A DNA stretch of 44,372 nucleotides from Sedimentisphaerales bacterium (GCA_028277585.1 JANQFY010000178.1:1-44372); one strand, 5' to 3'. Positions 14,371-35,709 are shown, counted from the first letter of the stretch. Numbers and translations: made by a program. Notes: generated by a model from the sequence alone, not told the origin.

Positions 14371-14384
14371 TCCGCAGGCCGGGC

Positions 14385-16067: not shown

Positions 16068-16093
16068 CGGGCCGGCATTCTGAACGGAGCAGA

Positions 16094-17551
16094 ATGACAA
16101 AGCACAGAAAGCCACCCAAAGGAATGAAGAAGCGGGTCAGGCCTGCTCATTCGAGCCCTCCTCCCGCGACGAGGCACAGGGGGCATCGGCGGTGGGCCGT
16201 CGGGATCATTCTGGCTGTCACCGTGGTTGGAGTGAGCATCATATGGCTGACCGGGGAGGACGCCGAGCCAACCGCGCCCTCATCGCCCGCGGGTGTTCCG
16301 ACTGAACAGCGCCATGTCGTCACCGTTCTGAGTGCGTACGCCGGCCAATCGCCCGAGAATGTGCCGGCCGTCCAAGAGGAGGAATTGGCGCTGGCGGAAG
16401 CCCTGATCCAGGATTTCCCTCAGAGCGATGCGCCGCTGGCGCTGCTGGCGCGCGTCCATCAGTATCGCGGCGACATCACCAAGTCCGAAGCCCTGTGGAA
16501 ACAGGCCGCCGCTCTGAACCCGAAACGCAGCGACTTGTACGAGAGCATCGGCCAGGCCGCTCAGCGAAAGGACGACCCCAACGAGGCGATCGCCTGGTGG
16601 CGCAAGGGTCTGGAGGCGAATCCTCGGGCGCCGGGGCTTCGCTGGCAGATCGCCAAGACCCTTGTTGCCCAAGGACAACTGGATGAAGCGCTGGACCTGC
16701 TCGAAATCGAATGCACGCTTACGCCTACATCCGCGCGGAACTATTATCTGCTGGGTCAGGTCCACCAGAAGAAACGAGCTTACGAGAAGGCCAAGGCCGC
16801 TTACGAGAAGACCATCGAGCTTCAGCCGGACTACTACAATGCCCACTACGGCCTGGGGGTGATCTACACGCGTCTGAAGGACATCGAGAAGGCAAAGGAA
16901 GCCATGGCGCGTTTCCGAGAATTCAAGGCTCAGGCCGATAGCTCGGAAGACCAGCGCATCATAATCGACGAGATCCCGCACGCCCGCCATCGAGCGGCGA
17001 CGTTCTATGTGAGAGCTTACAGCCTGTTCGACCCCAAACGTGAGCCGGCGATCGGCCAGAGGCTGCTCGAAAGAGCCCTGGAATTGGACCCGAACGACGC
17101 CCACACGTGGGAGAAGATGGCGGGTCACTACTTCGTGGGGAATCAGCATCAGAAGGCCCTGGAGCTGTTCCGCAGAGTCACCGAACTGGACCCGAGCAAC
17201 CCACTGCCCCACATCAACATCGGAAAGCTGTACGCCCTGATGAACCAGCCCGGGCGGGCCGGGAGCAGCCTGCGGCAGACCGTCGCACGCTTCCCCGACT
17301 CACACCTGGCGCTGGCCGAACTGGCGCGGTTCTATCTCCGCGTTCAGACCAATCTGCCCGAAGCCCGAACCTTGATGCAGAAAGCCACCGCTCTGAATCC
17401 CACTGCCGACTACTACTTTCTCCTGACCTGGGCGTGCGACATCAACGGAGATCTTGACGGCGCCCTGGACGCCATCCAGAAAGCGATTGCGCTGGACCCG
17501 AGGAACGGAACGTATAGGAGCGCCTATGAACGCATTCAAGCCAAGCGCTAG
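16094..17551 (+). CDS. Membrane-anchored TPR-repeat protein (paralog of 12895-14370)
   Basis: Basic N-terminus followed by a TM helix (…RRWAVGIILAVTVVGVSIIWL). TPR units. Same overall layout as the other TPR partners. Confidence 0.8.
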   Translation: MTKHRKPPKGMKKRVRPAHSSPPPATRHRGHRRWAVGIILAVTVVGVSIIWLTGEDAEPTAPSSPAGVPTEQRHVVTVLSAYAGQSPENVPAVQEEELALAEALIQDFPQSDAPLALLARVHQYRGDITKSEALWKQAAALNPKRSDLYESIGQAAQRKDDPNEAIAWWRKGLEANPRAPGLRWQIAKTLVAQGQLDEALDLLEIECTLTPTSARNYYLLGQVHQKKRAYEKAKAAYEKTIELQPDYYNAHYGLGVIYTRLKDIEKAKEAMARFREFKAQADSSEDQRIIIDEIPHARHRAATFYVRAYSLFDPKREPAIGQRLLERALELDPNDAHTWEKMAGHYFVGNQHQKALELFRRVTELDPSNPLPHINIGKLYALMNQPGRAGSSLRQTVARFPDSHLALAELARFYLRVQTNLPEARTLMQKATALNPTADYYFLLTWACDINGDLDGALDAIQKAIALDPRNGTYRSAYERIQAKR

Positions 17552-19202
17552 AACGATACGATATCTGGCCGCTTTGATTCTCTGCTCGTGCCTGACCGCC
17601 GGCGCCGCGGCGCCGTTTCGTTTTGTCGACGTCACCGCTCAAACGAAGATCGCCTTCAAGCATGATATCGGATTTTCGGGGACGTATCATATCGCTGAGA
17701 CCGTCTGTGCGGGATTGGCCTCGTTCGACTACGACAATGACGGCGATATCGACATCTACTTTCTCAACAGCGCGTCCCCCAAAGGATCACCGTTGCGAAA
17801 CGCCCTCTACCGCAATGACGGCGATTGGCGCTTCACTGATGTGACGAGCGCCGCGGGTGTGGGGGATACAGGATTCGGCCTGGGCGTCGCGGTCGCTGAC
17901 TACGACAACGACGGCGATCAGGACCTCTATCTCAACAATCATGGGCCCAACGTGCTCTACCGCAACAATGGCGATGGGACTTTCACCGATGTCACGAGCG
18001 CCGCCGGGGTGGGCAATGGCGACCAGGTGGGCGCCGGCGCGAACTTCCTCGATATCGAAGGCGACGGCGACGTGGACCTCTACGTATCCAACTACGTCAA
18101 GTGCCCCGACGTAGAGTCGTTTCAGAGCACTCGCGCCGGCCACCCGGCGTACTTGGGCCCCGCGGCTGAGATCTACGAGAACACACGCGACACCCTGTAC
18201 CGCAACAATGGCGACGGGACTTTCACCGATGTCACTGGCCCATCGGGCATCGGCGTACACAAGGGAGCCGGGATGGGAACCATCTGCGGCGACATCGACA
18301 ACGACCACGACACCGACATCCTCGTCGCCAACGACATGACGGGCAACTTCCTCTTCCTCAACGATGGAAAGGGCCGGTTCGAAGAGGCGGGCCTGATCGC
18401 CGCGATTGCCTACGATCAGCACGGAGAGGAACAGGGCAGCATGGGTGTCGAACTGGGCGACTACGACAACGACGGCAAACTGGATCTCTACGTCACCGCC
18501 TACCAGGACCAATGGGGCCCTCTCTACCGCAACCTCGGCGACGGCTTCTTCGAGGACGTCACCATGGAAACAGGCGCCGGGGCCGGGACGGTCGCGAGCG
18601 TCACCTGGGGCAGCGGCCTGGTCGATTTTGACCGAGACGGGCTGCGCGATCTGTTCATCGCGTGCGGTCACCTTCAGCCCAACGTCGAATCGTACGACGA
18701 CCGCACGACGTACAATCAGTTCAACAAGCTTTATCGCAACAATGGGAAGGGCAAACTCGTCGACGTTTCGTCGCAGAGCGGGCCGGGGCTGCAGGTCAAA
18801 CGGTGTAGTCGCGGCACCGCATTCGAGGACTTCGACAATGACGGCGACGTAGATATCGCCATCCTCAATTCGGGTCAAGAACCAACAATCCTCAGGAACG
18901 ATTCACCCAACCAGGGTCATTGGCTGCAGATTCGCCTGCGCGGGACCAAGACCAACCGCGACGGCGTAGGGGCCCGCGTCAAGGTCGTCGCCGGAGATCT
19001 GACGCTGATCGACGAAGTCCACAGCGGGCGCGGCTACCAGAGCCACCACGGAACCCGGCTCTATTTCGGCTTGGGTGGACGCGAGCAGATCGATCGGGTT
19101 GAAGTGCGTTGGATTGGCGGTGGAACGGACGTATTCAAGGACGTCAAGATCGACAGCCTTGTGACACTCGTTGAAGGTCAATCGCAGCCAAGCACTCAGT
19201 GA
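17526..19202 (+). CDS. CRTAC1-family protein (FG-GAP/VCBS + UnbV/ASPIC), secreted
   Basis: Start chosen at MNAFKPSARTIRYLAALILCSCLTAGAAA (signal peptide), which overlaps the last 26 nt of the upstream TPR gene. DxDxDG repeats. ASPIC tail nearly identical to those at 14385 and 31641. Confidence 0.85.
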   Translation: MNAFKPSARTIRYLAALILCSCLTAGAAAPFRFVDVTAQTKIAFKHDIGFSGTYHIAETVCAGLASFDYDNDGDIDIYFLNSASPKGSPLRNALYRNDGDWRFTDVTSAAGVGDTGFGLGVAVADYDNDGDQDLYLNNHGPNVLYRNNGDGTFTDVTSAAGVGNGDQVGAGANFLDIEGDGDVDLYVSNYVKCPDVESFQSTRAGHPAYLGPAAEIYENTRDTLYRNNGDGTFTDVTGPSGIGVHKGAGMGTICGDIDNDHDTDILVANDMTGNFLFLNDGKGRFEEAGLIAAIAYDQHGEEQGSMGVELGDYDNDGKLDLYVTAYQDQWGPLYRNLGDGFFEDVTMETGAGAGTVASVTWGSGLVDFDRDGLRDLFIACGHLQPNVESYDDRTTYNQFNKLYRNNGKGKLVDVSSQSGPGLQVKRCSRGTAFEDFDNDGDVDIAILNSGQEPTILRNDSPNQGHWLQIRLRGTKTNRDGVGARVKVVAGDLTLIDEVHSGRGYQSHHGTRLYFGLGGREQIDRVEVRWIGGGTDVFKDVKIDSLVTLVEGQSQPSTQ

Positions 19203-20344
19203 GGCGCCGAACAGCCGATTGCAGCAACGGATTCAATACTCCCGTCCCGGATGGTCGCGAGCTGAACGGCTCGGGTATTGGCGCCGACGGCATTCCAACG
19301 AATCTGCCCGGCAACGCCTTGGAAGGGAGTCCCATCCCGAACCGCATCCCGGATGCGCGTCCGGTCCGATCCCGCCTTGCGAATCGCACTGGTCAGCAGT
19401 GTCAGGGCGTCGTACGTGTGAGCGGCGGCATAGTCCGGCTGACGGTTGAAGCGTTTGTTGAACTCCTCGGCAAACGCATGGAACCTCGGAGACATGACCA
19501 GAGGATGGGGGAACACAACTCCCTCAGCCGCAGCGCCGGCTTGTTTGAGAAAGGTTCGCCTGCCCATCTGGGGTCCGCCGAAGACCGCGCGGGCGTATCC
19601 TCGGCCGCGCAATTCTCGGAGCACCGCGGCGCCGCCTCGGGGATCAGCAATCAGAACCACCGCCTGCGGATCGGCTTGCAGAATTCCATCGACAATGGGT
19701 GGAACGCCCGACGCTTCCGTATTGCACTGGAGATGAAAAGCCGGGACGATCCGACACGCCTTGAACGCCTTCCGCAATTCCACGGCAAATACCTGGGAGT
19801 CATGGTCCACCGCCGAGACCACCATCAGGGATTGGCGCTCAGAGCGTAACGCTATCGCTTTGGCCAAAACCATCGCCTGCACATCGTCCAGGGGAACGCA
19901 CGAGAACATCCAGGGGACGCCCGCCATGTTAACCGATTTGTCGCTGGCGACGGGACTGATCAGAGTCAGTCGAGCCTTGGCGACCACCTGCTCGGCCAGA
20001 TGGGTTGAGGCGCCGTCGATCCCCCCAACGATCGCCCGGACCTTCTCGACATACGCCATCCGCGCCACGTCCGCGACGCCCGAGCCCCAGGGACTCTCCG
20101 ACCAACTCGTGACCAGGCGAAAAGGAGCACCCTCGCAGCCCCCTGCGCGATTGGCTTGTTCAAGGGCCATCGAGGCGGCGCACCAGAGGTCCCCTCCGTC
20201 GGAATGGGTGGACGAGGCCGGCCCGAAGTAGCCAATGAGGACCTCCCCGACCTTGGAATCAGAAGCATCGAGCGCGGCGAGGCGTCCGACTGCCAACGCA
20301 ACGGCGAGCAGCGCGACACCAGCGGCATGGCGGAAACGGCGCAT
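19196..20344 (-). CDS. Type-1 periplasmic binding protein (Peripla_BP_6, LivK-like ABC substrate-binding protein), with no cognate permease in the window
   Basis: Signal peptide MRRFRHAAGVALLAVALAVG. PBP1 fold motifs (…LIGYFGP…, AIVGGIDGASTH…). The start at 20344 replaces the longer six-frame ORF. The 3' end overlaps the convergent gene ending at 19202 by 7 nt. Confidence 0.75.
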   Translation of the reverse strand: MRRFRHAAGVALLAVALAVGRLAALDASDSKVGEVLIGYFGPASSTHSDGGDLWCAASMALEQANRAGGCEGAPFRLVTSWSESPWGSGVADVARMAYVEKVRAIVGGIDGASTHLAEQVVAKARLTLISPVASDKSVNMAGVPWMFSCVPLDDVQAMVLAKAIALRSERQSLMVVSAVDHDSQVFAVELRKAFKACRIVPAFHLQCNTEASGVPPIVDGILQADPQAVVLIADPRGGAAVLRELRGRGYARAVFGGPQMGRRTFLKQAGAAAEGVVFPHPLVMSPRFHAFAEEFNKRFNRQPDYAAAHTYDALTLLTSAIRKAGSDRTRIRDAVRDGTPFQGVAGQIRWNAVGANTRAVQLATIRDGSIESVAAIGCSAPH

Positions 20345-20351
20345 GGGTAGC

Positions 20352-21839
20352 TCAACTGCGTCCGGCGTCCGAGTGTTTCTCCTCAGTTGCCGAGACATCG
20401 ACTCGGTCGCGGGCCGGCACATAGTCGCGCGGAATTCCCAGATCCTCGCGCGAGCGGTAGGTCCACTCTCCGTCGCGACGCTCGACCAGGAAGACATCGC
20501 CCACGGTGTCGAGCGCAGCGCTGAGGGTAATCTCGCCAGTCACGCCCTCCCACGACTGGGCGCGATGCGCCAGGACGTCGCGGATCTTCGCCCGGTTCAG
20601 GCCGGCGACCTGGACCGCCCAGAGCAACATGTTCATTCCATCGTAGGCATGGGCGGCGTACGTCTCAGCTTCTTCGCCGAAACGTTTCTCGAAGCGCTCC
20701 TGGAAAGCGACGTAGTGCGAATCGTCACGCGTCGGGTCCCAGGGGGAGGTGCAGATCACACCCTCGGCGTTCGACCCGGCTAACTCGAGGAACTCGTCCG
20801 ACAGACAACGGTCGCACGCGAAATACGGATGCTCCATGTCCATCTCGCGCATCTGGTTCAGGATCAGGGCGCCTTCCGAGGCGTTTCCCCAGTGTATGAT
20901 GGCCTGAACGTTCGCCTCTTTGAGCCGTTCGAGTTGCAGAGAGAAATCCTCAATGCCGAGTTTGTAGGCCATTTCCAGGATGATGGGCCGGCCGAGACGA
21001 CGACTCCCATCGCGGATCTCGCGGACTCCGAAGCGGCCGTACCGATTGCTCGCCCGCATAATGCCGACCCGTTCGAGCCCCAGCTTGCGATACAGGTAGT
21101 CGACCAGCAAATACCCCTGCTGGCGATCGTCGCTGATACAGCGGAAGACCCATGGAATGTTAGTCTCGATGAAGGTCGGATCGGTGTCGCCCGAGTTCAT
21201 CATGGGGACTTCGGCCTTCAGCGCTACGCGGATGGCGATATGGCTGTTGGCCCCATCGATGGTCCCCAGGATAGCCCAGACCTTGTCTTTGTACGCCATC
21301 TTGACGATTTCATTGCCCGAGGCGCCCCAGAGCCCGTTGTCGTTGCTGACAATCAGTTCGAAGGGGATGTTCCGCTTGTGATAGCCGCCTTGTGCGTTGG
21401 CCTCTTCGATGGCGAGGCGCGAGCCCTGCAACATCTTGATGCCGAGCGGCTCTTCATGGCTCTTGCCCCCGGTCGCGACGGAGACCGTCGACATGATGGG
21501 CCCGATGAAGCCGATCTTAACCGTGTTGACATCCTCCGGCTCGGGGATCGCCCGCCCCGGCCCGGTGTACTCCATCTGCGTCAGGAAGTGCTCCTTGTAC
21601 GGCTCGACATGACGAAACGGCTTGACGTCATGCGTAGTCTCGGCGTACTTGGCGTCTTCCTTCAGCGCCAGGTCGGGGACCTCGTAGGCGCTGACGGAAT
21701 TGATCTTCTCGACGACCTCGCTGGTGTGCGCGTCGACTTCCACCGGGCCCGATGTGTCGCGACGGGCCTGTTCCGGCCCACTGCACGAAGCCAGAGACAC
21801 CGAGATAACCAGACTGATCAGAACGATCCAACGCTTCAT
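20352..21839 (-). CDS. Type-1 periplasmic binding protein lipoprotein (LivK-like), second tandem copy
   Basis: Lipoprotein signal MKRWIVLISLVISVSLASCSG. Motifs VKIGFIGPIMS…, AILGTIDGANSHIA. Only 7 nt separate it from the next substrate-binding-protein gene. Confidence 0.8.
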   Translation of the reverse strand: MKRWIVLISLVISVSLASCSGPEQARRDTSGPVEVDAHTSEVVEKINSVSAYEVPDLALKEDAKYAETTHDVKPFRHVEPYKEHFLTQMEYTGPGRAIPEPEDVNTVKIGFIGPIMSTVSVATGGKSHEEPLGIKMLQGSRLAIEEANAQGGYHKRNIPFELIVSNDNGLWGASGNEIVKMAYKDKVWAILGTIDGANSHIAIRVALKAEVPMMNSGDTDPTFIETNIPWVFRCISDDRQQGYLLVDYLYRKLGLERVGIMRASNRYGRFGVREIRDGSRRLGRPIILEMAYKLGIEDFSLQLERLKEANVQAIIHWGNASEGALILNQMREMDMEHPYFACDRCLSDEFLELAGSNAEGVICTSPWDPTRDDSHYVAFQERFEKRFGEEAETYAAHAYDGMNMLLWAVQVAGLNRAKIRDVLAHRAQSWEGVTGEITLSAALDTVGDVFLVERRDGEWTYRSREDLGIPRDYVPARDRVDVSATEEKHSDAGRS

Positions 21840-21901
21840 AGCAAACCTCCTCGCCCAGGGAGCATCGTCAACATGCTCTGGCGAAATCATGTCATGCGCT
21901 G

Positions 21902-23080
21902 TCACTTAGACGTCCCCGTTTGCACTACTTTCTGCGCCGCCGGCGCGTGCAAGGGGCGCTCCTTCAGCCCCGGATAGTATCCGGCGCCCTTGCCCCGGGC
22001 CAGTCCCTTGGATGTCCCTACCCAGACGTCGTCGCCATCGATCTCCACCCACAGGGCGTAGTTATGCGGAATCCCGCGCGGGCTGCGGACCGTCTCCAAC
22101 ACCTCTTTGTTGCGAGTGACCACAGCGACACCCTCGTGCGTGTTGGGGTCCATTGTATAGGTAATCCAGGTGTCCGTCGAGAAATCCGTTACGACGCCGA
22201 CGCCTTTGTCGGTGGCGTACCACCCCTCGTCGGCGCTGCGGCCCTTGACGGCGTTGCCAAAATCGCTGGGCAAACCGGTCTCGTGGGCGTAGTAGCCCCG
22301 CCAGTAGCGCCCGTCGTAGCGGCACATGCCGAAATAGCTAGAGACCCAAAGCACGTCGTCCACGTGGCTGACGCCGGTGGTGATCACGTGGACGATGCCG
22401 TCGTCGCGGTACAGATCGATCTCCATCTCGCCGTCCGGATCAAGGTAGTCCTTCCAATTCTCCGTCTTGATGTCGAACTCCAGGATGCCGCTGCCCCAGA
22501 CGCTGAGAAAGACCTTGCCGTCGCTCTGGCAGACGCCGTAGTTCCAGATCTCTTCCATCGGGGCGTTCTTCTCGGTGTAGATCGTCCATTCGCCTGTGAC
22601 GGTGTTGAAACGACTGGCCCCAGCGGTGGTCGCCACCCAGACGTTGTCATTCTCGACCGCGACGCCGTAGACGACGTCGTTGACCAGGCCGCTGTTGAGC
22701 TGGTGCCAGTGGTCGACCCGCCCGCCGCTGAAGCGGGCCAGGCCGCCGCCGAAGAGGCCAACCCAGAGTTCGCCCGTCTTCGGGTTCATATCGAGCGCCG
22801 AGACCACCCGCCAGGGAAGCCCTTCCGCTTCGGTCCAGCTCTTGACCTTGCCCGTGCGCTTGTCGATGCAGGCCAGCCCGTTCTCTGTACCGACCCAGAC
22901 CTTCGTCTCGTCGGCCTCGACGGCGAAGACATGGTCGTTGGGAAGACCGTCCTTGACCGTGAAGTGCTGCCAATCCGTGTAGACATACGGCAAGCGGGCG
23001 GCGCCTGCCGCCGACGCGAAGACCATCGACAGGGCCAATACGATCAGCCCCTTAGAAATCCACTGATGAATCATACACAC
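21902..23080 (-). CDS. Secreted beta-propeller repeat protein (two-component-regulator-propeller / Reg_prop-like repeats)
   Basis: Signal peptide (…GLIVLALSMVFASAAGAA). Repeated ~45-aa units with the pattern …W(V/I)GT.nGLa/…VWVATtaGasrf…, as seen in Reg_prop/Y_Y_Y-type propellers. Confidence 0.65.
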   Translation of the reverse strand: MCMIHQWISKGLIVLALSMVFASAAGAARLPYVYTDWQHFTVKDGLPNDHVFAVEADETKVWVGTENGLACIDKRTGKVKSWTEAEGLPWRVVSALDMNPKTGELWVGLFGGGLARFSGGRVDHWHQLNSGLVNDVVYGVAVENDNVWVATTAGASRFNTVTGEWTIYTEKNAPMEEIWNYGVCQSDGKVFLSVWGSGILEFDIKTENWKDYLDPDGEMEIDLYRDDGIVHVITTGVSHVDDVLWVSSYFGMCRYDGRYWRGYYAHETGLPSDFGNAVKGRSADEGWYATDKGVGVVTDFSTDTWITYTMDPNTHEGVAVVTRNKEVLETVRSPRGIPHNYALWVEIDGDDVWVGTSKGLARGKGAGYYPGLKERPLHAPAAQKVVQTGTSK

Positions 23081-23100: not shown

Positions 23101-25959
23101 CTACAACGTTTTGATGTACTCGATCAGGTCGTTGAGCTGGTCTTTGGTCATATCGTTGGTGACCCCGTGTTGATCGTCCGGGTTGTAAACCGTCCAGATC
23201 TCCTCGAGCGTCTCGGCGATGCCGTTATGCAGATACGGCGACGAATCGTAAATGTTGTTCAAATGCGGCGTATCGAATTCCGATTCGCGATCCCACTTCA
23301 GTTTCGTCCCAATGTCGTGGCGCTGGCGATCCGTATAGAGCGGCGGTGCGTGACATGTCACACAGCGATTGCCCTTGGGGATCAGGCGACCGTCATTGGT
23401 CATCGTCCGCTCGAACATCGCTTTGCCGCGACGCTGGGCGTCGGTCAGTTCGGCGCCGAGGGGTCGATAGCGATTCGGCGGTCGTGGAATCGTGCAGATG
23501 TAGTTGTCGAGTGCCGAGAGTTGCTCGTCGGTAAATGGCTGAATCCGCGTGAAAAAGACCGCCAGGCGCGGGCCGCACTGGCGTTGCAGACTCGGGTTGG
23601 TCCCCTCCCACTTGAACGGGGCGGTGTCAAGGATGCCCCGCAGCGTACGGTTGTCGACCGGGCTGATTCCAATGCCGTCCGGCTCGATGTCGTAGGTCAG
23701 GCCGTCGACGTGCCCATCAGGATGACACGAGTGACAGGAGAACTGCCGATGGAACGTGATGTTGGCGCTGTGGAAGACGCGCTCGCCGTACCGGATCTTC
23801 GTGATCTCTTTCGGACCGCCCAGGTCAATGCGACCGGCCGCTTCCATCCGCTCGAGATCGATCGCCGTCAGCGAATCGTCCAGGGCGTTGGCGACGAAGG
23901 CGCTCTTGCCGTCCGGCGTCACGATGATCCCGCGCGGGCTGTATTCAACGGGGATGTGTTTGACCACGAACTCCGTCGGCTTGCCCAAGTGGTTCGGAAA
24001 GACGTGCTCACGATCGTGGTCCGACGCCGCCTCGAGCATCGCGATCATCTTTTCCAGATCGATCACGGCTATGCGGTTGGATCCCGAACTGCTCGCCAGC
24101 GCCCACCGGCCATTGGGCGTAATGACCACATCGGCCGGGTCGGGAAACGACATGCCCGGCTCATCGAGCAGGACCTGATCGACGCGGCCATCTTTCCAGA
24201 TAATGCCCAGCCCATTCGTGATCGTCCAGCCCTGCAACAACCGCGTCATCGGCACAAGGTTCTTCGTACGGTTCAGAGTCGTCAGGGCGAACTTCCCGCT
24301 GGGGTGCCAATCCACGCCCTGCATGAGATTGGCGGCCGGCACCACCCGGCGGTCGTCCACGATGTTGCGCTTCGCATTGATGATGGTGACTTCCGACATA
24401 GACGGCGTGCGGAAAGGAACGAAGCGCGACAGGTTGTTCGTGACGTAGATCTCCGAGCCGTCCGGCGCCAGGGACAACGACCAGGGATTGCGGCTGGCCG
24501 CCAGTCGCTTGATCTCTTTCTGCGTTGCCAGTTCGATGATGGAGATACTGTCCGAAGAGGTGTTGAGTACGTACAGATACGTGCCCGAGGGATCGACCAG
24601 AACCCCGTGCGGCTCATCGCCCACGGGAATCGTCCCGATCTCCTTGCGCGAGATAACGTCCACGACCGAGACCGTATCGTCCAGACGATTGCTGACATAC
24701 GCCCTTTGCCCATCGGGGCTGAACGCCACGTCGGTCGGATGGCGGCCCACCGCGATCTCCGCGATCTTGCGCCGCGACTGAGCATCGACAACGATCACCG
24801 TGTGCGACGCCTCGCAGGCCACATAGAGTTCCTTGCCCCCCGGGAGAATCGCCAGATTCAGGGGTGTCTTGTAGTGCGGCGCTTCGGCGACCTGTTCGAT
24901 CTTGGTCGGATGAGCGATCTTCGCAAGCGCCTTCTCATAATCGAATGGCTTGTCGTGCGCGTTCTCGTGACAACGCAGGCATGTCTGTTCGTTCACCTCT
25001 TTGAGCCCGGCCGTGTGCGCAGCGCGCGGATCGGTCATGCGTGCCTCCTCGGCATACGCGCTGCCCGCGCCGTGACAAGCCTCGCAGCCGACTCCTTCGT
25101 AGACCGAGTACAGATCCCGTTGCCCCCCGGCCGGGTCGTGATGCGCCGTGGAATGGCATTTCAAGCAAGCCGCACTCCTCTGTGGGGGCTCCTTGAGTCC
25201 CTTCTCCTTGGCGATCTCGTACGCCTTCTCGGTCGTCAAGACGGCAAACGCACGGCTGTGAGCGCTCATGCGCCACTTGCTGAACTGGTAACCCATCGAT
25301 GGGCCCTTGTGGCAGGTCCCACATTTGAAGACCCCGATATGGGCCGGTGCGTTCCCTTGCGAATCACCAGCCGGCAGTGCGACCGGGTCGCTGTATTTCC
25401 ATTCCTCCGGCGTCGGGTGCGCTATCCGCCGGAGCCCCTTGAGGACGTCCAGGGTGGGCAAGCTATGGACCGCCACGTGGGAACCTTTGACCTGGTGACA
25501 GACCATGCAGTCCCGCGTGGTGGGCATGTTGAGCCCGGCCGCCATCGCCTTCCCGCGATCCCGCATGACCGATTCGGTCATGTACTCGCTACCCGGACCG
25601 TGACAGTGCTCGCACTGGACCCCGTCCTCGACAAAAAATGTGTCGTCCTTCTCCCAATCCTCGGCGTGCGCTCCGGTTGCATGACAGCCCAGGCACATCA
25701 CGCTCTCCTGGGGCTCCTGGGGAATACCGCTCAGTTGCGCGATCGCCTTGGCTCCGGGCTGGGCGAGGACAGCGTAAGCGCGAGCGTGCTTGGATTGCTG
25801 CCAGATGCTGCACTGATGGCCCATGCCCTCCCCGTCATGACAGGCGGCGCAGGCTTTGACGCCGACATAAACCGGTTGCCTCTGAGCCGTGCCATAGGCC
25901 AAGACGGCTGAGGGGAGGATCAGAACAATCGATAGGACACAAAGAAGATAGCGAGACAT
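23101..25959 (-). CDS. 952-aa deca-haem c-type cytochrome: duplicated tetrahaem (c554-like) module + YVTN-type beta-propeller + C-terminal di-haem cytochrome c peroxidase/MauG-like domain
   Basis: Signal peptide. CxxCH motifs: CAACH, CLGCH, CEHCH, CMVCH, CGTCH, CLKCH, CEACH, CLRCH (N-terminal 360 aa), then CHSCH and CVTCH in the C-terminal 300 aa. The CCP-family motif FDTPHLNNIY (cf. F-x-x-PSLRN) is present. The middle region has YVTN-like 40-residue repeats (…AYVSNRLDDTVSVVDV…, …LYVLNTSSDSISIIEL…). Confidence 0.85.
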   Translation of the reverse strand: MSRYLLCVLSIVLILPSAVLAYGTAQRQPVYVGVKACAACHDGEGMGHQCSIWQQSKHARAYAVLAQPGAKAIAQLSGIPQEPQESVMCLGCHATGAHAEDWEKDDTFFVEDGVQCEHCHGPGSEYMTESVMRDRGKAMAAGLNMPTTRDCMVCHQVKGSHVAVHSLPTLDVLKGLRRIAHPTPEEWKYSDPVALPAGDSQGNAPAHIGVFKCGTCHKGPSMGYQFSKWRMSAHSRAFAVLTTEKAYEIAKEKGLKEPPQRSAACLKCHSTAHHDPAGGQRDLYSVYEGVGCEACHGAGSAYAEEARMTDPRAAHTAGLKEVNEQTCLRCHENAHDKPFDYEKALAKIAHPTKIEQVAEAPHYKTPLNLAILPGGKELYVACEASHTVIVVDAQSRRKIAEIAVGRHPTDVAFSPDGQRAYVSNRLDDTVSVVDVISRKEIGTIPVGDEPHGVLVDPSGTYLYVLNTSSDSISIIELATQKEIKRLAASRNPWSLSLAPDGSEIYVTNNLSRFVPFRTPSMSEVTIINAKRNIVDDRRVVPAANLMQGVDWHPSGKFALTTLNRTKNLVPMTRLLQGWTITNGLGIIWKDGRVDQVLLDEPGMSFPDPADVVITPNGRWALASSSGSNRIAVIDLEKMIAMLEAASDHDREHVFPNHLGKPTEFVVKHIPVEYSPRGIIVTPDGKSAFVANALDDSLTAIDLERMEAAGRIDLGGPKEITKIRYGERVFHSANITFHRQFSCHSCHPDGHVDGLTYDIEPDGIGISPVDNRTLRGILDTAPFKWEGTNPSLQRQCGPRLAVFFTRIQPFTDEQLSALDNYICTIPRPPNRYRPLGAELTDAQRRGKAMFERTMTNDGRLIPKGNRCVTCHAPPLYTDRQRHDIGTKLKWDRESEFDTPHLNNIYDSSPYLHNGIAETLEEIWTVYNPDDQHGVTNDMTKDQLNDLIEYIKTL

Positions 25960-25963
25960 CCTC

Positions 25964-27601
25964 TCATGACTCCTTTGACTTGGATGGCTGAACGACTTTC
26001 AGCACCTGATTGGATGGCACATCCGTCAACGCCGTGGTCGCTCCATCCGGCCAGCGGATTTCAACGCGATCGACCTGAGCGGACTTGCCCAGACCGAAAT
26101 GACAGCGGGGGTCGGCCTGTGACAGATAGCCTCGAACCGGAATCGCGTCCTGAACCTGGACGAGCGAACCGGTCTTGACAGTCACCCGCGCCCCGGTGGC
26201 GTGGACCTTGCCTCCGGGCAGGCGGGCATCCACCATCAGCCAGCGATTCTTGTTGCCGCCGTCGTTGCGCAACAATCGGGGGATGGCGTTGAGATTGACG
26301 ATCAGCAGATCGACGTCACCGTCATTGTCATAGTCGCCGTAAGTCGCGCCGCGCCCGACGTATTTCTCCCGGAAGTAGGGACCGGAGTCGATCGCCACGT
26401 CGACGAACTTGCCCGTCCCATCGTTGCGCATCAGCACATCCTCTTCGGTGTACTCGTGATGGGCGTTTCCGTTGCCCACGAAGACATCGAGATAGCCGTC
26501 GGCGTCGTAGTCGAAGAGAATGCCGCCCCAGCCCGTGTACTGGCCGCACACCACCGCCAGGTTCGTCTGAGCCGTGCGGTCTTCGAAGTAGTCCTCTCGG
26601 TTCATCAAGAGACAACCGTACCCCATATCGGGAACGTAGATGTCGATCCATCCATCGCGATCCACGTCGCCCACCGCCGGCCCCATGGACGAAACGCCCT
26701 GGCCCCCTTCCCCGAAGGCGAGCCCCATCTCCAACCCCTCATTGGCGAACGTACCCTTGCCCTCGTTTCGGAAGTAGTAGTTCTCCATGCCGTCGTTGGG
26801 GATGTAGATGTCCAGAAGCCCATCGTTGTTCAGGTCCGTCACGGTGGCGCTCATGGCGCGTCCATTGGGCTGGAAGACACCCGCTTCCTTCGTGACATCG
26901 GTGAAGGTGCCGTCACCGTTGTTGCGGTAAAGGGCGTCGGGTTGCCCGCTGTAACTGAGCGGACCCGGATAGCCGGCCGCGGCGTAGAATGAGCGGAACT
27001 TGCCGCTGTCGTATTCCAGATAGTTGGCGACATAGACATCCAGGTCGCCATCTCCATCGTAGTCGAACCACGGCGCCGAAAGACTCCAGCGGGTATCGGC
27101 CAGGCCGGAAGCCTTGGAGACATCGGTGAAAGTGCCGTCGCCGTTGTTGCGATACAGTACGTTGGCGCCGTAATTGAGCACGTAGAGATCGAGATCGCCG
27201 TCCGCATCGTAGTCAGCCGCCGAGCAGCCGAAGCCAAAACCCTTGTCTCCCACTCGCGCCTTCTTTGTGACATCGACAAAGGTCCCATCTCCCTTATTGC
27301 GGTACAGGGTATTGGCGAGCTTGCCGCGGAACTGACGGCCCCGGTTGTCGCTCACATCGCGGAGCCAGCAACCGTTCGGCAGGTAGATGTCCAGCCACCC
27401 GTCGTTGTCGTAGTCGAAGAACATCGCGCCGGAGCCCGTCCCCTCGACGATGTTGCTCAGATCGAGATCGCCGTAGCTATGCTTGACCTGGATGCCGGCC
27501 TGCTGTGTCACATCAACAAACGTCGGCAACTCCTGCGCCGCCGCGATGCTCAGCAGGCACAAGACCAGAATCGAAACTCGAACGTATTGGGATACACTCA
27601 C
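25964..27601 (-). CDS. CRTAC1-family protein (FG-GAP/VCBS + UnbV/ASPIC), fifth paralog, on the opposite strand from the others
   Basis: Signal peptide VSILVLCLLSIAAAQE. DxDxDG loops (DYDNDGWLDIY, DYDADGDLDLYV, DYDGDGDLDVYV, DVDRDGWIDIYV, DYDNDGDVDLLIV). ASPIC tail (…RWLMVDARLPGG…ATGARVTVKTG…). GTG start at 27601. Confidence 0.85.
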   Translation of the reverse strand: MSVSQYVRVSILVLCLLSIAAAQELPTFVDVTQQAGIQVKHSYGDLDLSNIVEGTGSGAMFFDYDNDGWLDIYLPNGCWLRDVSDNRGRQFRGKLANTLYRNKGDGTFVDVTKKARVGDKGFGFGCSAADYDADGDLDLYVLNYGANVLYRNNGDGTFTDVSKASGLADTRWSLSAPWFDYDGDGDLDVYVANYLEYDSGKFRSFYAAAGYPGPLSYSGQPDALYRNNGDGTFTDVTKEAGVFQPNGRAMSATVTDLNNDGLLDIYIPNDGMENYYFRNEGKGTFANEGLEMGLAFGEGGQGVSSMGPAVGDVDRDGWIDIYVPDMGYGCLLMNREDYFEDRTAQTNLAVVCGQYTGWGGILFDYDADGYLDVFVGNGNAHHEYTEEDVLMRNDGTGKFVDVAIDSGPYFREKYVGRGATYGDYDNDGDVDLLIVNLNAIPRLLRNDGGNKNRWLMVDARLPGGKVHATGARVTVKTGSLVQVQDAIPVRGYLSQADPRCHFGLGKSAQVDRVEIRWPDGATTALTDVPSNQVLKVVQPSKSKES

Positions 27602-27606
27602 GCCTA

Positions 27607-29595
27607 TTATCCTCCACGATCACCCGGGGCGGCCTCTTCGACGACGGGAAGACCGTCCCAAAGCGCCCCCATGTCAATCCACTCAACGAACGTGCGTTTC
27701 TCATCCTCGGTCAGCGCCGGCGCGCCGGCCGGCGGCATCTTCTTTGGCGCCGGGACCGATTCCATGCCGTCCCAGGGGCGGGACGTATTGCGCCCGTAGA
27801 GTCGCCAGATCAAGGGACTCTTCCGCGCTGCGCCGGAATGGACGTACTTGCCCTGCCCAGGCTCCGCCCCGGAAGCCAGCAGGCTCAGATAGCTGCGATT
27901 GAACGACCCCGATGAACCATCACCCACTTTCAGATCGGCCGTCAAATGGATCGGAGCGTCTGCCTGACCATGGCAGCGAACACACTTGGCCGCGATGATA
28001 GGCATGACATCGCGACGAAAATCGACGGTGCGCCGCTGTTGCGGCGCCAGCGTCAACTTGATGGACGGACGCTTGACGGCATCAACGACGATATTCTCCG
28101 GCGTCAGTTCCGGATCTTCGTGACATCCGATGCATCCCTGGCGGGCATAGTCCTTGGCCCAAACCCATCCGCAACTCCGCAGGGCCATGCCGTCCGCGTC
28201 GAGGATTTGCAGTTCGATCGCGGTGTTGGCCGGGATCTCGACGTTGAACGAGCCATCCTTCTCGACAGGGACATCACCCAGGATGCGCCGCTGCGCCAGC
28301 GACGCGGGATGGGCGCCCGGCCCCTTCACGGGAATGCCTTCCAGGACCCGCACGCGCTGGATCGCCCCGGCGGGCAGCCAGGTCGGTCCCAGATCGGACG
28401 TGTACGCGTTCAGACAATACAGTTTACCCGTTCGCGCCGAGGCTTCATGGTGTTCCGGCACGGCGGTCGCCCGCCCGTCTGGTTCGGGCCGCACACAGAC
28501 CGCCTTGGCCTGGATATCGTGCCACTGAGGATCGTCGAAGACCGGTTCGACCTTTCCATCTTCGGGATCGAGCGTGCAGATTCCGTGGGTACCGGCGCCG
28601 TCACTCGATCGACGCGAGACCAGGATGCGTCCGTCCGGCAAAGGTGAGGGAGAATGAAACAATCCCTCGTCATCGGTAGCAATGGGTCGGTAAGAGTGCA
28701 ACGGACGCCGCAGGGTGACAGAACCCAGGCTGCCCGCACCGTCCCAGCCGACCGCATCAGCCTCGACGAATATGACCATCCCGCGCGGAGTGACGCAAGG
28801 CATGTGCTGGACCCGCTTTCCCTGGCCCGTTGTGAACGGGGCGTAATCGGAGCCATCGATGTTGACGCCGAGCAATCCGATGAAGCCGGCCGGCCCGTGA
28901 TCGAGTCGCGCACGTTGCCAACTGGCGAAGACCAGACGACCATCCGGTAAGATGCAGGGATCCAGGTCGCTGGAGAGGTTAAACGTCAATCGGCGCACCG
29001 CTGTGCCATCGAGCTTGCAGGAATACAAGCTGGTGGCGGGGGAACCGCCGTACTCGTTGGTCGCGGCGTCGGTCGCGACAAACGTAATATGATACTCCGG
29101 CACCGACGGTACTCCGACCGGCTTGATTGTATACAGCGAAGACTGGTAGTCCGGGCTGCGGCAATCCCCCATATTCCGCGTGATCTGACGGGCATTGGAG
29201 TCGCCGACCAGCATCTCATAGATGTTCGACTCATAGATGTTCCACGCATCGGTGGAGGCCCGCTTGCCGGCAAACAGTACACGCTTGCCGTCGAAAGAAA
29301 CCACCGGATCGGCTGCGCTGTGGAATCCATTGCTGAGGACTTTCGTCGATCCGTATGTGGCCAAGAGAACGAGTCTGGCGCCGTCGCCGTAGTCCGCTCG
29401 CAGGGTCGTCTCAGCCCGGGCTTCACGACCCCGGTCTTTCGGCAGTTGGGTCAGAACAATCGGATAGCCCGGAGAAGACGTGTCTTCCTGCCCCAATCCG
29501 CTCTGTACCAGGAGCACAATGAGAAGGAGGGTTTGCAGGAGATGACCCCAATGCAACGCCTGAGAAACACTGCGAGGCTTCGCCGGCGAACTCAT
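27607..29595 (-). CDS. Secreted PD40/TolB-like beta-propeller protein with a C-terminal PSCyt1-type (Planctomycete) c-type cytochrome domain (2 CxxCH)
   Basis: Signal peptide MSSPAKPRSVSQALHWGHLLQTLLLIVLLVQSGLG (start at 29595). PD40-like repeats (…DPVVSFDGKRVLFAGKR…). The C-terminus carries CIGCH and …DVMPIIAAKCVRCHG… …LTEDEKRTFVEWIDMGALWD, matching the PSCyt1 pattern. Confidence 0.8.
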   Translation of the reverse strand: MSSPAKPRSVSQALHWGHLLQTLLLIVLLVQSGLGQEDTSSPGYPIVLTQLPKDRGREARAETTLRADYGDGARLVLLATYGSTKVLSNGFHSAADPVVSFDGKRVLFAGKRASTDAWNIYESNIYEMLVGDSNARQITRNMGDCRSPDYQSSLYTIKPVGVPSVPEYHITFVATDAATNEYGGSPATSLYSCKLDGTAVRRLTFNLSSDLDPCILPDGRLVFASWQRARLDHGPAGFIGLLGVNIDGSDYAPFTTGQGKRVQHMPCVTPRGMVIFVEADAVGWDGAGSLGSVTLRRPLHSYRPIATDDEGLFHSPSPLPDGRILVSRRSSDGAGTHGICTLDPEDGKVEPVFDDPQWHDIQAKAVCVRPEPDGRATAVPEHHEASARTGKLYCLNAYTSDLGPTWLPAGAIQRVRVLEGIPVKGPGAHPASLAQRRILGDVPVEKDGSFNVEIPANTAIELQILDADGMALRSCGWVWAKDYARQGCIGCHEDPELTPENIVVDAVKRPSIKLTLAPQQRRTVDFRRDVMPIIAAKCVRCHGQADAPIHLTADLKVGDGSSGSFNRSYLSLLASGAEPGQGKYVHSGAARKSPLIWRLYGRNTSRPWDGMESVPAPKKMPPAGAPALTEDEKRTFVEWIDMGALWDGLPVVEEAAPGDRGG

Positions 29596-30337
29596 CTCCC
29601 TATGTGATTGGGCGCTCCAGGCGCCGCGAAACGTTGCCGCGTCTTCCATCGCTTTCCGCCAAACGAAAGGATTCGCGCCGCCGTCTCAGAACGGACGGGG
29701 GCTCGAATCAGTTGTGTCGATCGTACAGACCTCGACGAGGGCAGCTTGGTGGAGCGATAATCGTGTCGAGTCAAATGCCCAAGTCAACAGTCACACTCAG
29801 TCGCGCAGAGGCCGTATGAAACAGGGTTGCCAAGCTACGGCAGTCTGCTGCACATCAATGTTCTTGGATCGCGCCTCGGCTGGAACCCGTCCCCTGAGGA
29901 CTTGCCGACACACGTTTGCGGACACTCGCCCATGGCGTGTCCCTTCACGATTCGTCGTGGCTATGCCACGCAATTCTCATTCTAGTAAATACGTCTATTC
30001 GACGCAATAACTTGAAAAAAGACTGCCGCCTGATCCCTTCTTACCGGGCGTCGCCGGCAAGAGGATGAGGGCCTATCCACACGGTTGAGCTGCTGCAATT
30101 CCGGCGACCTGGGAGATTTCCGTGGGAAAAAGCCCAGTATCACCCCTGATAAAGCCGACAATGTACTCGGGACGACGAATGTCCCCGAACCGGGACGGTC
30201 TGGCCTCGAGCCGAGGCCGTCGGGCGTCACCGGTGTACCGCTTGCGTCAGCATGGTCATCTTGATAGGATGAGACCAGCAGGGCCGATAAGCAGCGGGAT
30301 TCGGCGCAGGGCTGGTATTCTCCCGACTGGACTTGTG

Positions 30338-31624
30338 ATGAAAACAAGCCGGCACAGTCAACGACGAAGAACCACCACGAGCCAACGCCTGTTTGAATCA
30401 ATCGCCAGGCATGGAGTAGTTTGGCGTCCAACGATTCTATGGGTCGCCTTCTGCTGCGCGCTGCCGGCCCACGCCCAGACCAAGACGACGTCGGAGACGC
30501 CGACGGCCCCACCCCGCGTGGCGCCGGAGGAAGTCGCCGCCCTGAAGAAAGAGGAACTGGGCGTCGTCCAGAAACTAGCCCGGGACTTTCCTAACAGTCT
30601 TGAACCGATCGTCTTGACCGGCCGCGTCCACTACCGACACGGCCGCGCCGACGAAGCGATGGCGATCTGGAAACGCGTGCTCGAGCGCGATCCCAAGCGT
30701 CCCAGAGTGCATGAGGACATGGGCTGGTTCGCGATGAGCAAAGGGCAATACGAGCAGGCCATCGAACACTGGCGTCAGGTCCTGGAGATTCGTCCCGGGG
30801 CGCCCGGCATCCATAGCGGTATCGCCCGGGCGCTGATGGGCTCGAATCGACATGCCGAAGCCGTTGACGCCCTGAAGAAGGAGATCGAGATTTCGCCCAA
30901 CTCAAGCTTCGACTGGTTCCTTCTGGGCCAGGAGCACCGCCAGCAGAAGCAGCATGAACAGGCCAAAGCCGCCTACGAGAAGGCAATCGCCCTGGATCCC
31001 AACCTGACCAATGCCTATTACGGTCTGTTCACCGTCTGTGGGCGCCTCGGGCAGCGGGATGAAGCCAAGCAACACATGGCGACGTTCAAGAAACTCAAAG
31101 CGGCCGACATGGAACGGCTCAAGGACCGCAATGAGGCGTTCAACGACCTGATCGATATGCGTCGAAACGCCGCGGAGACCCTGATGTTCGCCGGGCAGGC
31201 TTATCTGAGCGCCGGGAGAGTGGACGAAGCCGAAAGATTGATCATTCGAGCAACCCAGTTGGCGCCGAAGAACGCCACCTACCATCTGCACGCGGCCGCG
31301 ATCGCCATGCAGCTCAAGCATCCGGCTAGGGCCGAGAAGGCGTTTAGAGAAGTGATCCGACTCGCCCCGGAAAACGCGCGGGGCTACAGCGGGCTGGCCC
31401 ATCTGTACCTTCAGGCGAACCAGAGACTCCCTCTGGCCAAGCAACTGGCGCAGAAAGCCGTGGCCCTGGAGCCCAGCGCCTTCCACTATTACGTCCTCAG
31501 TTGGGCCTGCGGCCGGAACGGCGACGACGCCGGCGCTGCGACCGCCATCAGCCGGGCCGTCCAGTTGGAGCCGGGCAACCCGAGATACCGGCGTATCGCG
31601 GAAGCTCTGAAGATACGGAATTGA
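30338..31624 (+). CDS. Membrane-anchored TPR-repeat protein (third paralog)
   Basis: Start at MKTSRHSQRRRTTTSQRL…ILWVAFCCALPAHA (basic N-terminus plus a hydrophobic segment). TPR units (…WFLLGQEHRQQKQHEQAKAAYEKAIALDPNLTNAYYGLF…). The six-frame ORF extends to 30122, but no signal/TM fits upstream. Confidence 0.75.
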   Translation: MKTSRHSQRRRTTTSQRLFESIARHGVVWRPTILWVAFCCALPAHAQTKTTSETPTAPPRVAPEEVAALKKEELGVVQKLARDFPNSLEPIVLTGRVHYRHGRADEAMAIWKRVLERDPKRPRVHEDMGWFAMSKGQYEQAIEHWRQVLEIRPGAPGIHSGIARALMGSNRHAEAVDALKKEIEISPNSSFDWFLLGQEHRQQKQHEQAKAAYEKAIALDPNLTNAYYGLFTVCGRLGQRDEAKQHMATFKKLKAADMERLKDRNEAFNDLIDMRRNAAETLMFAGQAYLSAGRVDEAERLIIRATQLAPKNATYHLHAAAIAMQLKHPARAEKAFREVIRLAPENARGYSGLAHLYLQANQRLPLAKQLAQKAVALEPSAFHYYVLSWACGRNGDDAGAATAISRAVQLEPGNPRYRRIAEALKIRN

Positions 31625-31640
31625 TAGGACCTTGAGGACC

Positions 31641-35674: not shown

Positions 35675-35709
35675 ACCTTTTGCACCTACGATGATACAGC
35701 AACAGTGAT

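Follow-up and report, generated by a model that had tools for sequence, protein, structure and literature searches.

Hydrazine synthase and its relatives outside anammox bacteria

For a long time, hydrazine synthase (HZS) was regarded as an orphan enzyme found in anammox bacteria only. Here we describe an operon encoding homologues of its three subunits in a 44,372-nucleotide (nt) stretch of DNA from a Sedimentisphaerales bacterium (GCA_028277585.1, JANQFY010000178.1:1-44372), the whole of which is referred to below as the window. The central gene, on the minus strand at 23101..25959, encodes an exported 952-amino acid (aa) fusion protein in which a duplicated cytochrome c554-type tetrahaem module (eight haems) is joined to a homologue of HZS-beta and a homologue of HZS-gamma. 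The residues that distinguish both HZS active sites are missing, and the operon is read here as encoding a related complex with a different reaction.

In HZS, the beta subunit is structural and cofactor-free and lines the inter-subunit tunnel, into which it contributes a tunnel loop carrying a Mg-binding Glu. Haem gamma-I is attached via CxxCH and a third Cys (gammaCys165), and gammaAsp168, beside the haem iron, is the proposed proton relay. Haem alpha-I has Tyr591 as its proximal ligand, the His of its CxxCH (His587) being diverted to a zinc together with alphaCys303, and haem alpha-II has a distal His772. Like HZS of Kuenenia (PDB 5c2v), the operon encodes three homologous components together: a di-haem alpha-type protein with an N-terminal propeller and an HZS_alpha middle domain, a beta-propeller with a conserved tunnel-type loop, and a di-haem gamma-type domain with, probably, a third haem-linking Cys and a bis-His electron-transfer haem. 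Beta and gamma form one chain, as in the fused HzsBC of Scalindua. Unlike anammox HZS, the proteins encoded here (~25% identity) score far under the family cut-offs and lack gammaAsp168, gammaHis144, the beta Glu and, on the alpha side, Tyr591, the zinc ligand Cys303 and His772. Eight extra haems and conserved FG-GAP, Reg_prop and binding-protein genes are present, and the genes stand in the opposite order to those of anammox bacteria.

Genes of this kind have been reported before. Dalcin Martins et al. (2023) found hzsA-like genes beside fused hzsBC-like genes in metagenome-assembled genomes (MAGs) of Phycisphaerae UBA1845, and considered that these might be novel anammox bacteria. Hägglund et al. 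(2025; Genome Biol Evol, December 2025, PMC12758564) sorted co-localised HZS homologues into clades I-IV; the portions of that paper drawn on here judge key HZS residues not to be conserved and offer no function. They name Thermogutta terrifontis, Aquisphaera giovannonii, Novipirellula artificiosorum, Syntrophobacter fumaroxidans and Paludibaculum fermentans as carriers of clade I, and place an FG-GAP/CRTAC1 gene between the alpha-like and beta-gamma-like genes in clades I and II.

Placed by shared diagnostic features, the fusion operon belongs to clade I as those portions define it. Shared are the upstream alpha-like gene, the intervening FG-GAP/CRTAC1 gene and two downstream binding-protein genes; the fused beta-gamma chain with eight extra N-terminal haem motifs in two c554 domains; the retention of gammaCys165 with Trp for gammaHis144; and the absence of alphaTyr591, alphaCys303, alphaHis772 and the beta-loop Glu. 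Nothing substantive in that account differs from the window locus, which is another member, from an uncultured Planctomycetota genome. On the same evidence the architecture was already described in December 2025, and the window adds a further instance of it, not a discovery; cultured carriers exist, and the biology of the family is testable. A preliminary description of the window had called the fusion unusual. This does not hold, given the publication, the occurrence of the full architecture in at least 301 species-level genomes and at least 120 clusters that are 71-84% identical.

Relative to the portions of PMC12758564 drawn on here, the present analysis adds a Reg_prop gene as an invariant fourth member (72 of 72 loci) and the extent of the family over those genomes. 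It also adds the loss of gammaAsp168, the retention of Asn770 and Gln794 of cytochrome c peroxidase (CCP) type, the invariance of His931 and His911, an independent C-terminal c554 fusion (P0139) and a protein in which alpha is fused to beta-gamma (P0262).

An exported ten-haem fusion protein

The gene is an uninterrupted open reading frame (ORF) with an ATG start. The preliminary description gave no strand, and we can add that it lies on the minus strand; its account of a single 952-aa polypeptide with ten CxxCH motifs was accurate, as were the placement of eight motifs in two four-haem repeats within the first ~360 aa (the last at aa 327) and of two in a C-terminal region with the motif FDTPHLNNIY (aa 895-904). 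Shuffled sequences of the same composition contain on average 0.023 CxxCH motifs, with a maximum of 2. From the N-terminus onward, the protein consists of a signal peptide, two tetrahaem modules of c554 type, a propeller with seven blades and, at the C-terminus, a di-haem domain:

25897..25959, minus strand: Sec-type signal peptide, aa 1-21, ending SAVLA before YG (read off the translation)
25360..25896, minus strand: cytochrome c554-like tetrahaem module 1, aa 22-200, with CxxCH at aa 37, 89, 116 and 151 (Pfam PF13435 and motif positions)
24895..25359, minus strand: cytochrome c554-like tetrahaem module 2, aa 201-355, with CxxCH at aa 213, 265, 292 and 327 (likeness to module 1; PDB 1bvb)
23815..24894, minus strand: seven-bladed YVTN beta-propeller, homologue of HZS-beta, aa 356-715 (phmmer, AlphaFold2, Foldseek)
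24214..24270, minus strand: near-invariant propeller loop RTKNLVPMTRLLQGWTITN, aa 564-582, aligned with PKNWLPVCEAENGQVFT of Kuenenia HZS-beta (alignment)
23104..23814, minus strand: di-haem HZS-gamma-like domain of the CCP superfamily, aa 716-952, with CxxCH at aa 742 and 866 (5c2v_C and residue mapping)

The N-terminal sequence MSRYLLCVLSIVLILPSAVLA, followed by YG, has a hydrophobic core and then a small-residue cleavage motif (read by eye from the translation), which indicates that the protein is exported. In other genomes, every full-length orthologue recovered (79 of 79) runs colinear with the ORF and carries ten CxxCH motifs. This excludes a fusion artefact as well as the possibility, raised at the outset, of two separate genes hidden by a frameshift. 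An AlphaFold2 model of the whole protein, built with 59 orthologues, is confident in the propeller only (mean pLDDT, predicted local distance difference test, 58).

We identified the N-terminal modules by the Pfam family Cytochrome_C554 (PF13435), which matches two stretches at 99.2 bits against a cut-off of 20.8, with four CxxCH in each module. The two are a true duplication (41% identity, E = 3e-38), and cytochrome c554 itself (PDB 1bvb) aligns to aa 209-309. Only two extra His per module are invariant in orthologues (His58 and His161; His234 and His350). Cytochrome c554 of Nitrosomonas europaea (PDB 1bvb/1ft5) resembles each module, which has four CxxCH and matches PF13435 and 1bvb; it is a free carrier, whereas here a tandem duplicate is covalently fused to an enzyme. 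By analogy, the likely role of the modules is that of an electron shuttle beside a catalytic multihaem enzyme.

An exhaustive search with aa 355-952 recovered many propeller plus di-haem proteins of 610-680 aa, 33-47% identical over the whole query. The haem motifs in this wider family vary, from 8+2 (P0128, P0129) through 4+2, 2+4 and 1+2 to 2 only. P0133 (805 aa, 4+2 haems) has a single copy of the c554 module at its N-terminus, and P0139 (851 aa, 2+4 haems) has the module at its C-terminus (37.5% identity to module 1, E = 6e-30). Judged from the sequences of these two fusions, the c554 module has been recruited repeatedly. P0262 (1300 aa, 2+2 haem motifs) joins an alpha-like half (aa 90-648; E = 6e-52 to the alpha-like protein of the window) to a beta-gamma-like half (aa 708-1300; E = 5e-81 to the beta-gamma part). 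Thus, the c554 modules appear to be functional partners of the di-haem core, since ten CxxCH are kept in the 79 orthologues and the fusions are independent; likewise, the alpha-like and beta-gamma-like proteins appear to work together, because P0262 fuses both (a Rosetta-stone case). Independent fusions are the strongest available evidence for both partnerships. The suggestion in the preliminary description that an electron wire is built into the protein is plausible in view of P0133 and P0139, and is treated here as a prediction.

The propeller as a homologue of HZS-beta

A YVTN-type propeller had been noted between the haem regions and its size put at ~250 aa; the fold is correct, and the size is ~350 aa (about aa 360-715). 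The confident part of the AlphaFold2 model, with pLDDT mostly >85, has 28 strands in seven blades (aa 366-712). Pfam propellers of YNCE/Lactonase type match over aa about 360-700. A phmmer comparison with HZS-beta (5c2v_B) gave E = 2e-39, with aa 365-700 aligned to residues 14-347 of the 352-residue chain. With the confident part of the model as query, Foldseek returned the same chain as its top PDB match (E = 6.8e-29, target TM 0.89, root-mean-square deviation 2.6 Å).

Another periplasmic multi-subunit system, quinohemoprotein amine dehydrogenase (PDB 1jju), likewise combines a di-haem cytochrome (alpha) with a seven-bladed YVTN-type propeller (beta). Its beta chain is a weak match to the propeller (1jju_B, E = 5.5e-6; Foldseek rank 5; TIGR03907 7e-13). 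Unlike that system, the operon lacks a gamma subunit bearing cysteine tryptophylquinone and a gene for a radical S-adenosylmethionine maturase, and the likeness is that of a generic propeller alone.

The loop at aa 564-582 is among the most conserved stretches of the propeller, with 15 of its 19 residues invariant and the remaining four near-invariant (alignment A1). AlphaFold2 has low confidence at aa 565-580, consistent with an exposed or interface loop. The Mg-binding Glu of HZS-beta is not kept: the Kuenenia Glu residues in and after the segment align with Arg573, Leu575 and Trp588, none of them acidic. The offset between beta numbering and the PDB chain is uncertain, and every candidate Glu was therefore checked.

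The di-haem domain

The C-terminal domain is the best conserved part of the protein (mean 0.83 in orthologues). Its closest structural relative is HZS-gamma (5c2v_C), with E = 2e-21 when the whole protein is used (aa 718-952) and 2.3e-23 for the C-terminal 247 aa alone. In the whole-protein search, di-haem enzymes of MbnH/BthA type and classical di-haem peroxidases get no further than about 1e-4; with the C-terminal 247 aa alone, MbnH and BthA (6e1c, 6nx0) score ~3e-6, classical CCPs 1e-4 to 1e-3 and MauG ~0.7-0.9. The top NCBIfam match of the 952-aa protein is hydrazine_BC (the beta-gamma fusion), followed by hydrazine_beta and hydrazine_gamma. Curated cut-offs (NF052339-NF052342) were not reached by any of these (hydrazine_BC 202 of 1250, beta 153 of 560, gamma 82 of 625), nor by the alpha-like protein (236 of 800). 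The Pfam threshold for CCP_MauG (PF03150) was also unmet by the domain, at 18.8 against 25.6 bits. The C-terminus had been described as CCP/MauG-like; the superfamily relation stands, supported by Trp784, Asn770 and Gln794, and the nearest characterised relatives are HZS-beta and HZS-gamma instead of CcpA or MauG. Of the domain searches that had been proposed, those for Cytochrome_C554 and propeller families returned matches and the one for CCP_MauG stayed below its cut-off.

Residues were mapped to Kuenenia numbering through the PDB chain segments printed by HMMER; an index of +39 for gamma and +27 for alpha reproduces His106, Cys165, His587 and His772. Cys742, Cys745, His746 and Cys795 align with gammaCys102, gammaCys105, gammaHis106 and gammaCys165 and are invariant in orthologues, and the position of Cys795 holds Cys in 22 of 33 diverse relatives. 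Arg798 corresponds to gammaArg167, and Asp761 stands at gammaGlu122. Lost is gammaAsp168, which aligns with Leu799 (MAFFT) or Arg798 (HMMER); aa 795-805 contain neither Asp nor Glu, and the diverse relatives have a hydrophobic residue at this position in 33/33 cases. In place of gammaHis144 is Trp784, the CCP/MauG state, with Trp in 30 of the 33.

The site of the electron-transfer haem (Cys866, Cys869, His870) is present. His911 and His931 are invariant in all 33 relatives and occur in Kuenenia as well, and no Met is conserved. The His870 haem is thus read as probably bis-His, with His931 or His911 as the partner. The sixth ligand of neither CCP (Met) nor MauG (Tyr) is conserved: the Met of the Nitrosomonas CCP motif AVETM aligns with Tyr925, a position that is F, Y, H, R or N in relatives, and Tyr925 was rejected as a MauG-like ligand on account of this variability. 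Met937, tried as a CCP-like sixth ligand, was also rejected (Leu in 21 of 33 relatives).

In an alignment with a classical CCP (9qdt_A), Trp784 corresponds to the Trp of FWDGR between the haems, Asn770 to the Asn of NAPT and Gln794 to the distal Gln. The inter-haem Trp, for which an alignment had been suggested, is thus present, as is the NAPT Asn, and both are invariant in the orthologue alignment. The other Ca ligands of CCPs are backbone carbonyls in the F-x-x-P region; here this region (aa 895-902) is conserved, and the AlphaFold2 model has low confidence in it. From its sequence the domain is a mosaic, in which the third Cys of HZS-gamma and a second haem that is probably bis-His are combined with the Trp, Asn and Gln of CCP/MauG type. 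Like the CCP, MauG, MbnH and BthA enzymes of PF03150, it has two CxxCH in ~240 aa, an inter-haem Trp, the Asn and Gln, and the pattern F-x-x-P-x-L-x-N ... P-Y-x-H-x-G. Unlike them, it falls below the Pfam cut-off, has no Met (CCP) or conserved Tyr (MauG) as sixth ligand and has an extra, probably haem-linking Cys; it also has a propeller and an octahaem arm as permanent parts of its chain and is linked in an operon to an HZS-alpha-like protein.

These features bear on whether the protein is simply a di-haem CCP with its electron donor fused to it, that is, a periplasmic H2O2 reductase for which the propeller and the operon partners serve as scaffolding. The retained Trp784, Asn770, Gln794 and FDTPHLNN...PYLHNG motifs would fit such an enzyme, HZS-gamma is itself structurally CCP-like, and CCPs need an external small cytochrome, a point made in the preliminary description that stands. 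We nevertheless consider a peroxidase unlikely. Classical CCP structures match at 1e-4 to 1e-3, where HZS-gamma reaches 2e-23, and the Pfam score falls short; the Met ligand position is the variable Tyr925. A third haem-linking Cys, as predicted here, is to our knowledge not known from CCPs. A simple peroxidase would also leave unexplained the obligatory linkage, which in P0262 is a fusion, to an HZS-alpha-like haem protein.

Even less probable, and very unlikely in our estimate, is an oxidising enzyme like MauG, MbnH or BthA, which would use a high-valent state of its two haems to alter a protein or peptide docked on the propeller, perhaps a co-encoded propeller protein. The closest structures other than HZS are of MbnH and BthA type, the inter-haem Trp is conserved, and three further exported beta-propeller proteins are always co-encoded. 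On the other side, MauG itself is barely matched, and the position of its Tyr ligand varies (Y/F/H/N) across the family. An eight-haem chain would be hard to rationalise if the oxidising equivalents came from H2O2 or O2. The propeller, moreover, is orthologous to HZS-beta, a structural subunit free of cofactors; nothing indicates that it is a docking platform for a protein substrate, as had been proposed.

The operon and its HZS-alpha-like protein

The operon context, missed by the preliminary description, is the key to the identity of the fusion protein. Six co-directional genes on the minus strand follow one another in the order alpha-like, FG-GAP/CRTAC1, 952-aa fusion, Reg_prop propeller, binding protein 1 and binding protein 2. 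As listed, they are separated by gaps of 4-20 nt or overlap by short stretches; with probable internal starts the gaps are 4-62 nt. Each of the six products begins with a signal sequence, as read from the translations. The partners of the fusion gene are:

27607..29649, minus strand: HZS-alpha-like gene, listed with 680 aa, which comprise a propeller, the HZS_alpha middle domain and two CxxCH (aa 506 and 556)
25964..27601, minus strand: FG-GAP and UnbV/ASPIC protein of the CRTAC1 family, 545 aa, between the alpha-like and beta-gamma-like genes (Pfam FG-GAP_3 4.9e-50, UnbV_ASPIC 1.1e-23)
21902..23080, minus strand: Reg_prop-type single beta-propeller, 392 aa, with signal peptide, directly downstream of the fusion (Pfam Reg_prop 7.2e-5)
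20352..21905, minus strand: type I substrate-binding protein 1, LivJ/HAAT (Peripla_BP_6 4.1e-39; PDB 4gnr E = 6e-25)
19196..20497, minus strand: type I substrate-binding protein 2, LivJ/HAAT (Peripla_BP_6 6.6e-38; PDB 4gnr E = 2.8e-19)

The Reg_prop protein matches the propeller of a hybrid two-component sensor (PDB 4a2l, E = 3.6e-25). Binding protein 1 has a lipoprotein-type signal ending LASC (read from sequence), and its real start is probably Met23 (nt 21839). Binding protein 2 probably starts at Met52 (nt 20344), which removes an overlap of 146 nt, and the alpha-like protein probably at Met19. In a near-identical strain the genes for binding protein 1, binding protein 2 and the alpha-like protein are called shorter, at 496, 387 and 664 aa. 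We found no riboswitch or other RNA element upstream of the operon.

The alpha-like gene lies two genes upstream of the fusion on the same strand. Its product contains the Pfam domain HZS_alpha (PF18582, E = 6e-21, above the cut-off) and aligns with 5c2v_A in four stretches (E = 3.4e-53); its 236 bits against hydrazine_alpha (NF052339) are under the cut-off of 800. The alpha-I CxxCH is followed by an invariant GCIGCHEDPELTPEN, without Tyr, and an invariant EDPELTPEN stands after the haem motif. No equivalent of alphaTyr591 was found, the invariant CIGCHEDPELTPEN downstream of the alpha-I haem motif being free of Tyr. Lacking are ~54 residues that follow the alpha-I haem motif in Kuenenia, and alphaCys303 has no counterpart, as it falls in an insertion found only in Kuenenia. 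The position of alphaHis772 is aligned with Gly, though the CxxCH at aa 556 is present. Three residues upstream of this Gly is a partly conserved Met638-Pro639 (in Met-Pro-Pro, aa 636-640). Motifs of Met-Pro-Pro type resemble the Met-ligand motif of class I c-type cytochromes. The alpha-II-type haem may accordingly be His/Met instead of bis-His.

Both HZS active sites therefore lack their distinctive residues, and for this reason we conclude, from sequence, that the product of the operon is not a hydrazine synthase and that its reaction differs. A bona fide divergent hydrazine synthase, in cryptic anammox bacteria outside Brocadiia as raised by Dalcin Martins et al. (2023) for UBA1845, would account for the clustering of homologues of the three subunits, for a beta-gamma fusion as in Scalindua and for the retained third haem-linking Cys (Cys795 for gammaCys165). 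It is nonetheless extremely improbable. The scores are far under the NCBIfam equivalog cut-offs (given above for all four models); gammaAsp168 has become Leu799, gammaHis144 Trp784 and the beta-loop Glu Arg573; and on the alpha side there is no Tyr after the alpha-I CxxCH, the alphaCys303 segment is absent and alphaHis772 is Gly. The gene order is the reverse of that in anammox bacteria, no HAO or HDH gene was identified among the genes of the window, and the cluster occurs in Acidobacteriota and in many heterotrophic Planctomycetota. Hägglund et al. (PMC12758564), in the portions drawn on here, concluded likewise.

Distribution and gene neighbourhood

The protein database contains 1643 relatives of the fusion protein at E <= 1e-5. 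The best 120 of these (clusters) cover 95-100% of the query at 71-84% identity and, where named, derive from Planctomycetota, Phycisphaerae or Sedimentisphaerales MAGs, with generic protein names only. In a scan of one genome per species, a relative is encoded in at least 301 species-level genomes, the best 80 being 61-79% identical. Carriers belong mainly to Planctomycetota and Acidobacteriota and include Sedimentisphaerales/Phycisphaerae, Pirellulales, Thermoguttaceae, Planctomycetaceae, Acidobacteriota (Solibacteraceae, Bryobacteraceae, Terriglobia) and one Verrucomicrobia MAG.

Synteny was counted only in loci with enough flanking contig, and the same order and strand were required. On this basis the alpha-like gene is found upstream without exception (56/56), and the FG-GAP (66/66), Reg_prop (72/72) and binding protein 1 (62/62) genes are equally constant; binding protein 2 is a neighbour in 50 of 53. 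Independent gene calls show the same six genes in a 4.69 Mb Phycisphaerales contig and in the near-identical strain.

An unbiased search of the flanking genes of related loci for a donor, membrane partner or regulator returned only FG-GAP/TPR paralogues, a C-N hydrolase and a RidA-like gene, none of them universal. The carbon-nitrogen hydrolase gene directly follows that of binding protein 2 in 9 loci. In 13 loci, which belong to two clusters, the alpha-like gene has a RidA/YjgF-like gene, identified by eye, ~350 nt upstream of it (examples of the hydrolase and the RidA-like gene, in this order: L051 16595-17785 and L001 16820-17839; L004 4945-6129 and L070 2159-2854). Neither gene occurs in the window. 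Both families release ammonia-level products, which hints at the metabolism of nitrogen compounds.

The neighbourhood is pertinent to the polarity of the complex. The same assembly could run in the opposite direction, with catalytic haems that oxidise hydroxylamine or another nitrogen compound delivered by the binding proteins, and an octahaem arm that exports electrons to periplasmic acceptors. In nitrifiers, c554 is the electron acceptor of HAO, and the fused modules are of c554 type. No conserved electron donor is encoded nearby, and the C-N hydrolase and RidA-like genes, with their ammonia-level products, recur beside the cluster in some lineages. On the other hand, HZS-gamma and CCPs are reductive at the equivalent haem, and none of the features known to us from oxidative haem enzymes, such as a P460-type Tyr cross-link, is identifiable. 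Sequence alone does not discriminate between the reductive and the oxidative direction; we rate the oxidative one as improbable, to about the same degree as the peroxidase.

Proposed function

We regard it as reasonably probable, short of confident, that the fusion and its operon encode a periplasmic HZS-like complex with an octahaem relay that carries out a different reaction and is not a hydrazine synthase. Most likely, the 952-aa protein is the catalytic and wiring subunit of a periplasmic complex with two haem sites. The alpha-like and beta-gamma-like proteins would form this complex, with the eight c554-type haems as an on-board electron relay in place of the separate cytochrome partner of HZS and CCPs. 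The relay would lead to the electron-transfer haem, probably a bis-His one (His870 with either His931 or His911), from which electrons could pass via Trp784 to the catalytic haem (His746; Cys742, Cys745 and probably Cys795). This haem may turn over a small oxidant, for which NO, hydroxylamine and peroxide are candidates by analogy. A second site may be formed by the propeller loop at aa 564-582 and an ordinary His-ligated haem (His510) of the alpha-like partner, and the pair of LivJ-type binding proteins may deliver a nitrogenous co-substrate or act as its sensor. Reductive turnover of a small N- or O-oxidant is favoured.

Several points weigh against this proposal. Substrate, product and the direction of electron flow are inferred for the family as a whole. 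In the related loci searched, no gene for a quinol dehydrogenase or another electron donor is a conserved neighbour. Since there is no acidic residue in aa 795-805 in place of gammaAsp168, an HZS-like conversion of NO to hydroxylamine is not assured. The AlphaFold2 model is unreliable for all haem domains, where pLDDT is mostly 25-55 and is <50 over most of aa 16-359 and 734-952.

A more specific version is quite unlikely, ranking between the oxidative direction and the MauG-like enzyme. It holds that the six-gene module is a two-site, tunnel-coupled multihaem enzyme with a new reaction related to, and distinct from, hydrazine synthesis. Possibly the haem held by three Cys would reduce a small N-oxide, and the alpha-like haem would be the place where the intermediate forms an N-N or N-C bond with a co-substrate of amine or amino-acid type brought by the LivJ-type proteins. 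If so, the family would be a living representative of the pre-anammox ancestor of HZS.

The operon family is the closest relative of HZS outside anammox bacteria and is widespread in sediment and soil Planctomycetota and Acidobacteriota. The function of the ten-haem complex would show from which chemistry HZS evolved, and could reveal an unrecognised periplasmic transformation of N or O species in common environmental heterotrophs. "hzs-like" genes in metagenomes should not be scored as evidence of anammox.

Other genes in the window

A tRNA gene at 42018-42087 (plus strand) is the sole match in the window at the Rfam gathering level. At 33494-37512 (plus strand) we identified a gene for a fused trehalose-6-phosphate synthase/phosphatase (726 aa) followed by a GH15 trehalase-like gene (600 aa). 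The pair also flanks the operon in the near-identical strain, with no evident link to the haem genes. The window is rich in FG-GAP and UnbV/ASPIC genes, with six copies besides that of the operon, mostly paired or fused with TPR or HEAT repeat genes, in the stretches 2193-5627 (minus strand) and 9335-12847, 12895-19202 and 30122-33326 (plus strand). Among 54 related loci, 29 have such extra FG-GAP paralogues beside the operon and 17 have TPR partners there; they are typical of the lineage and not part of the core.

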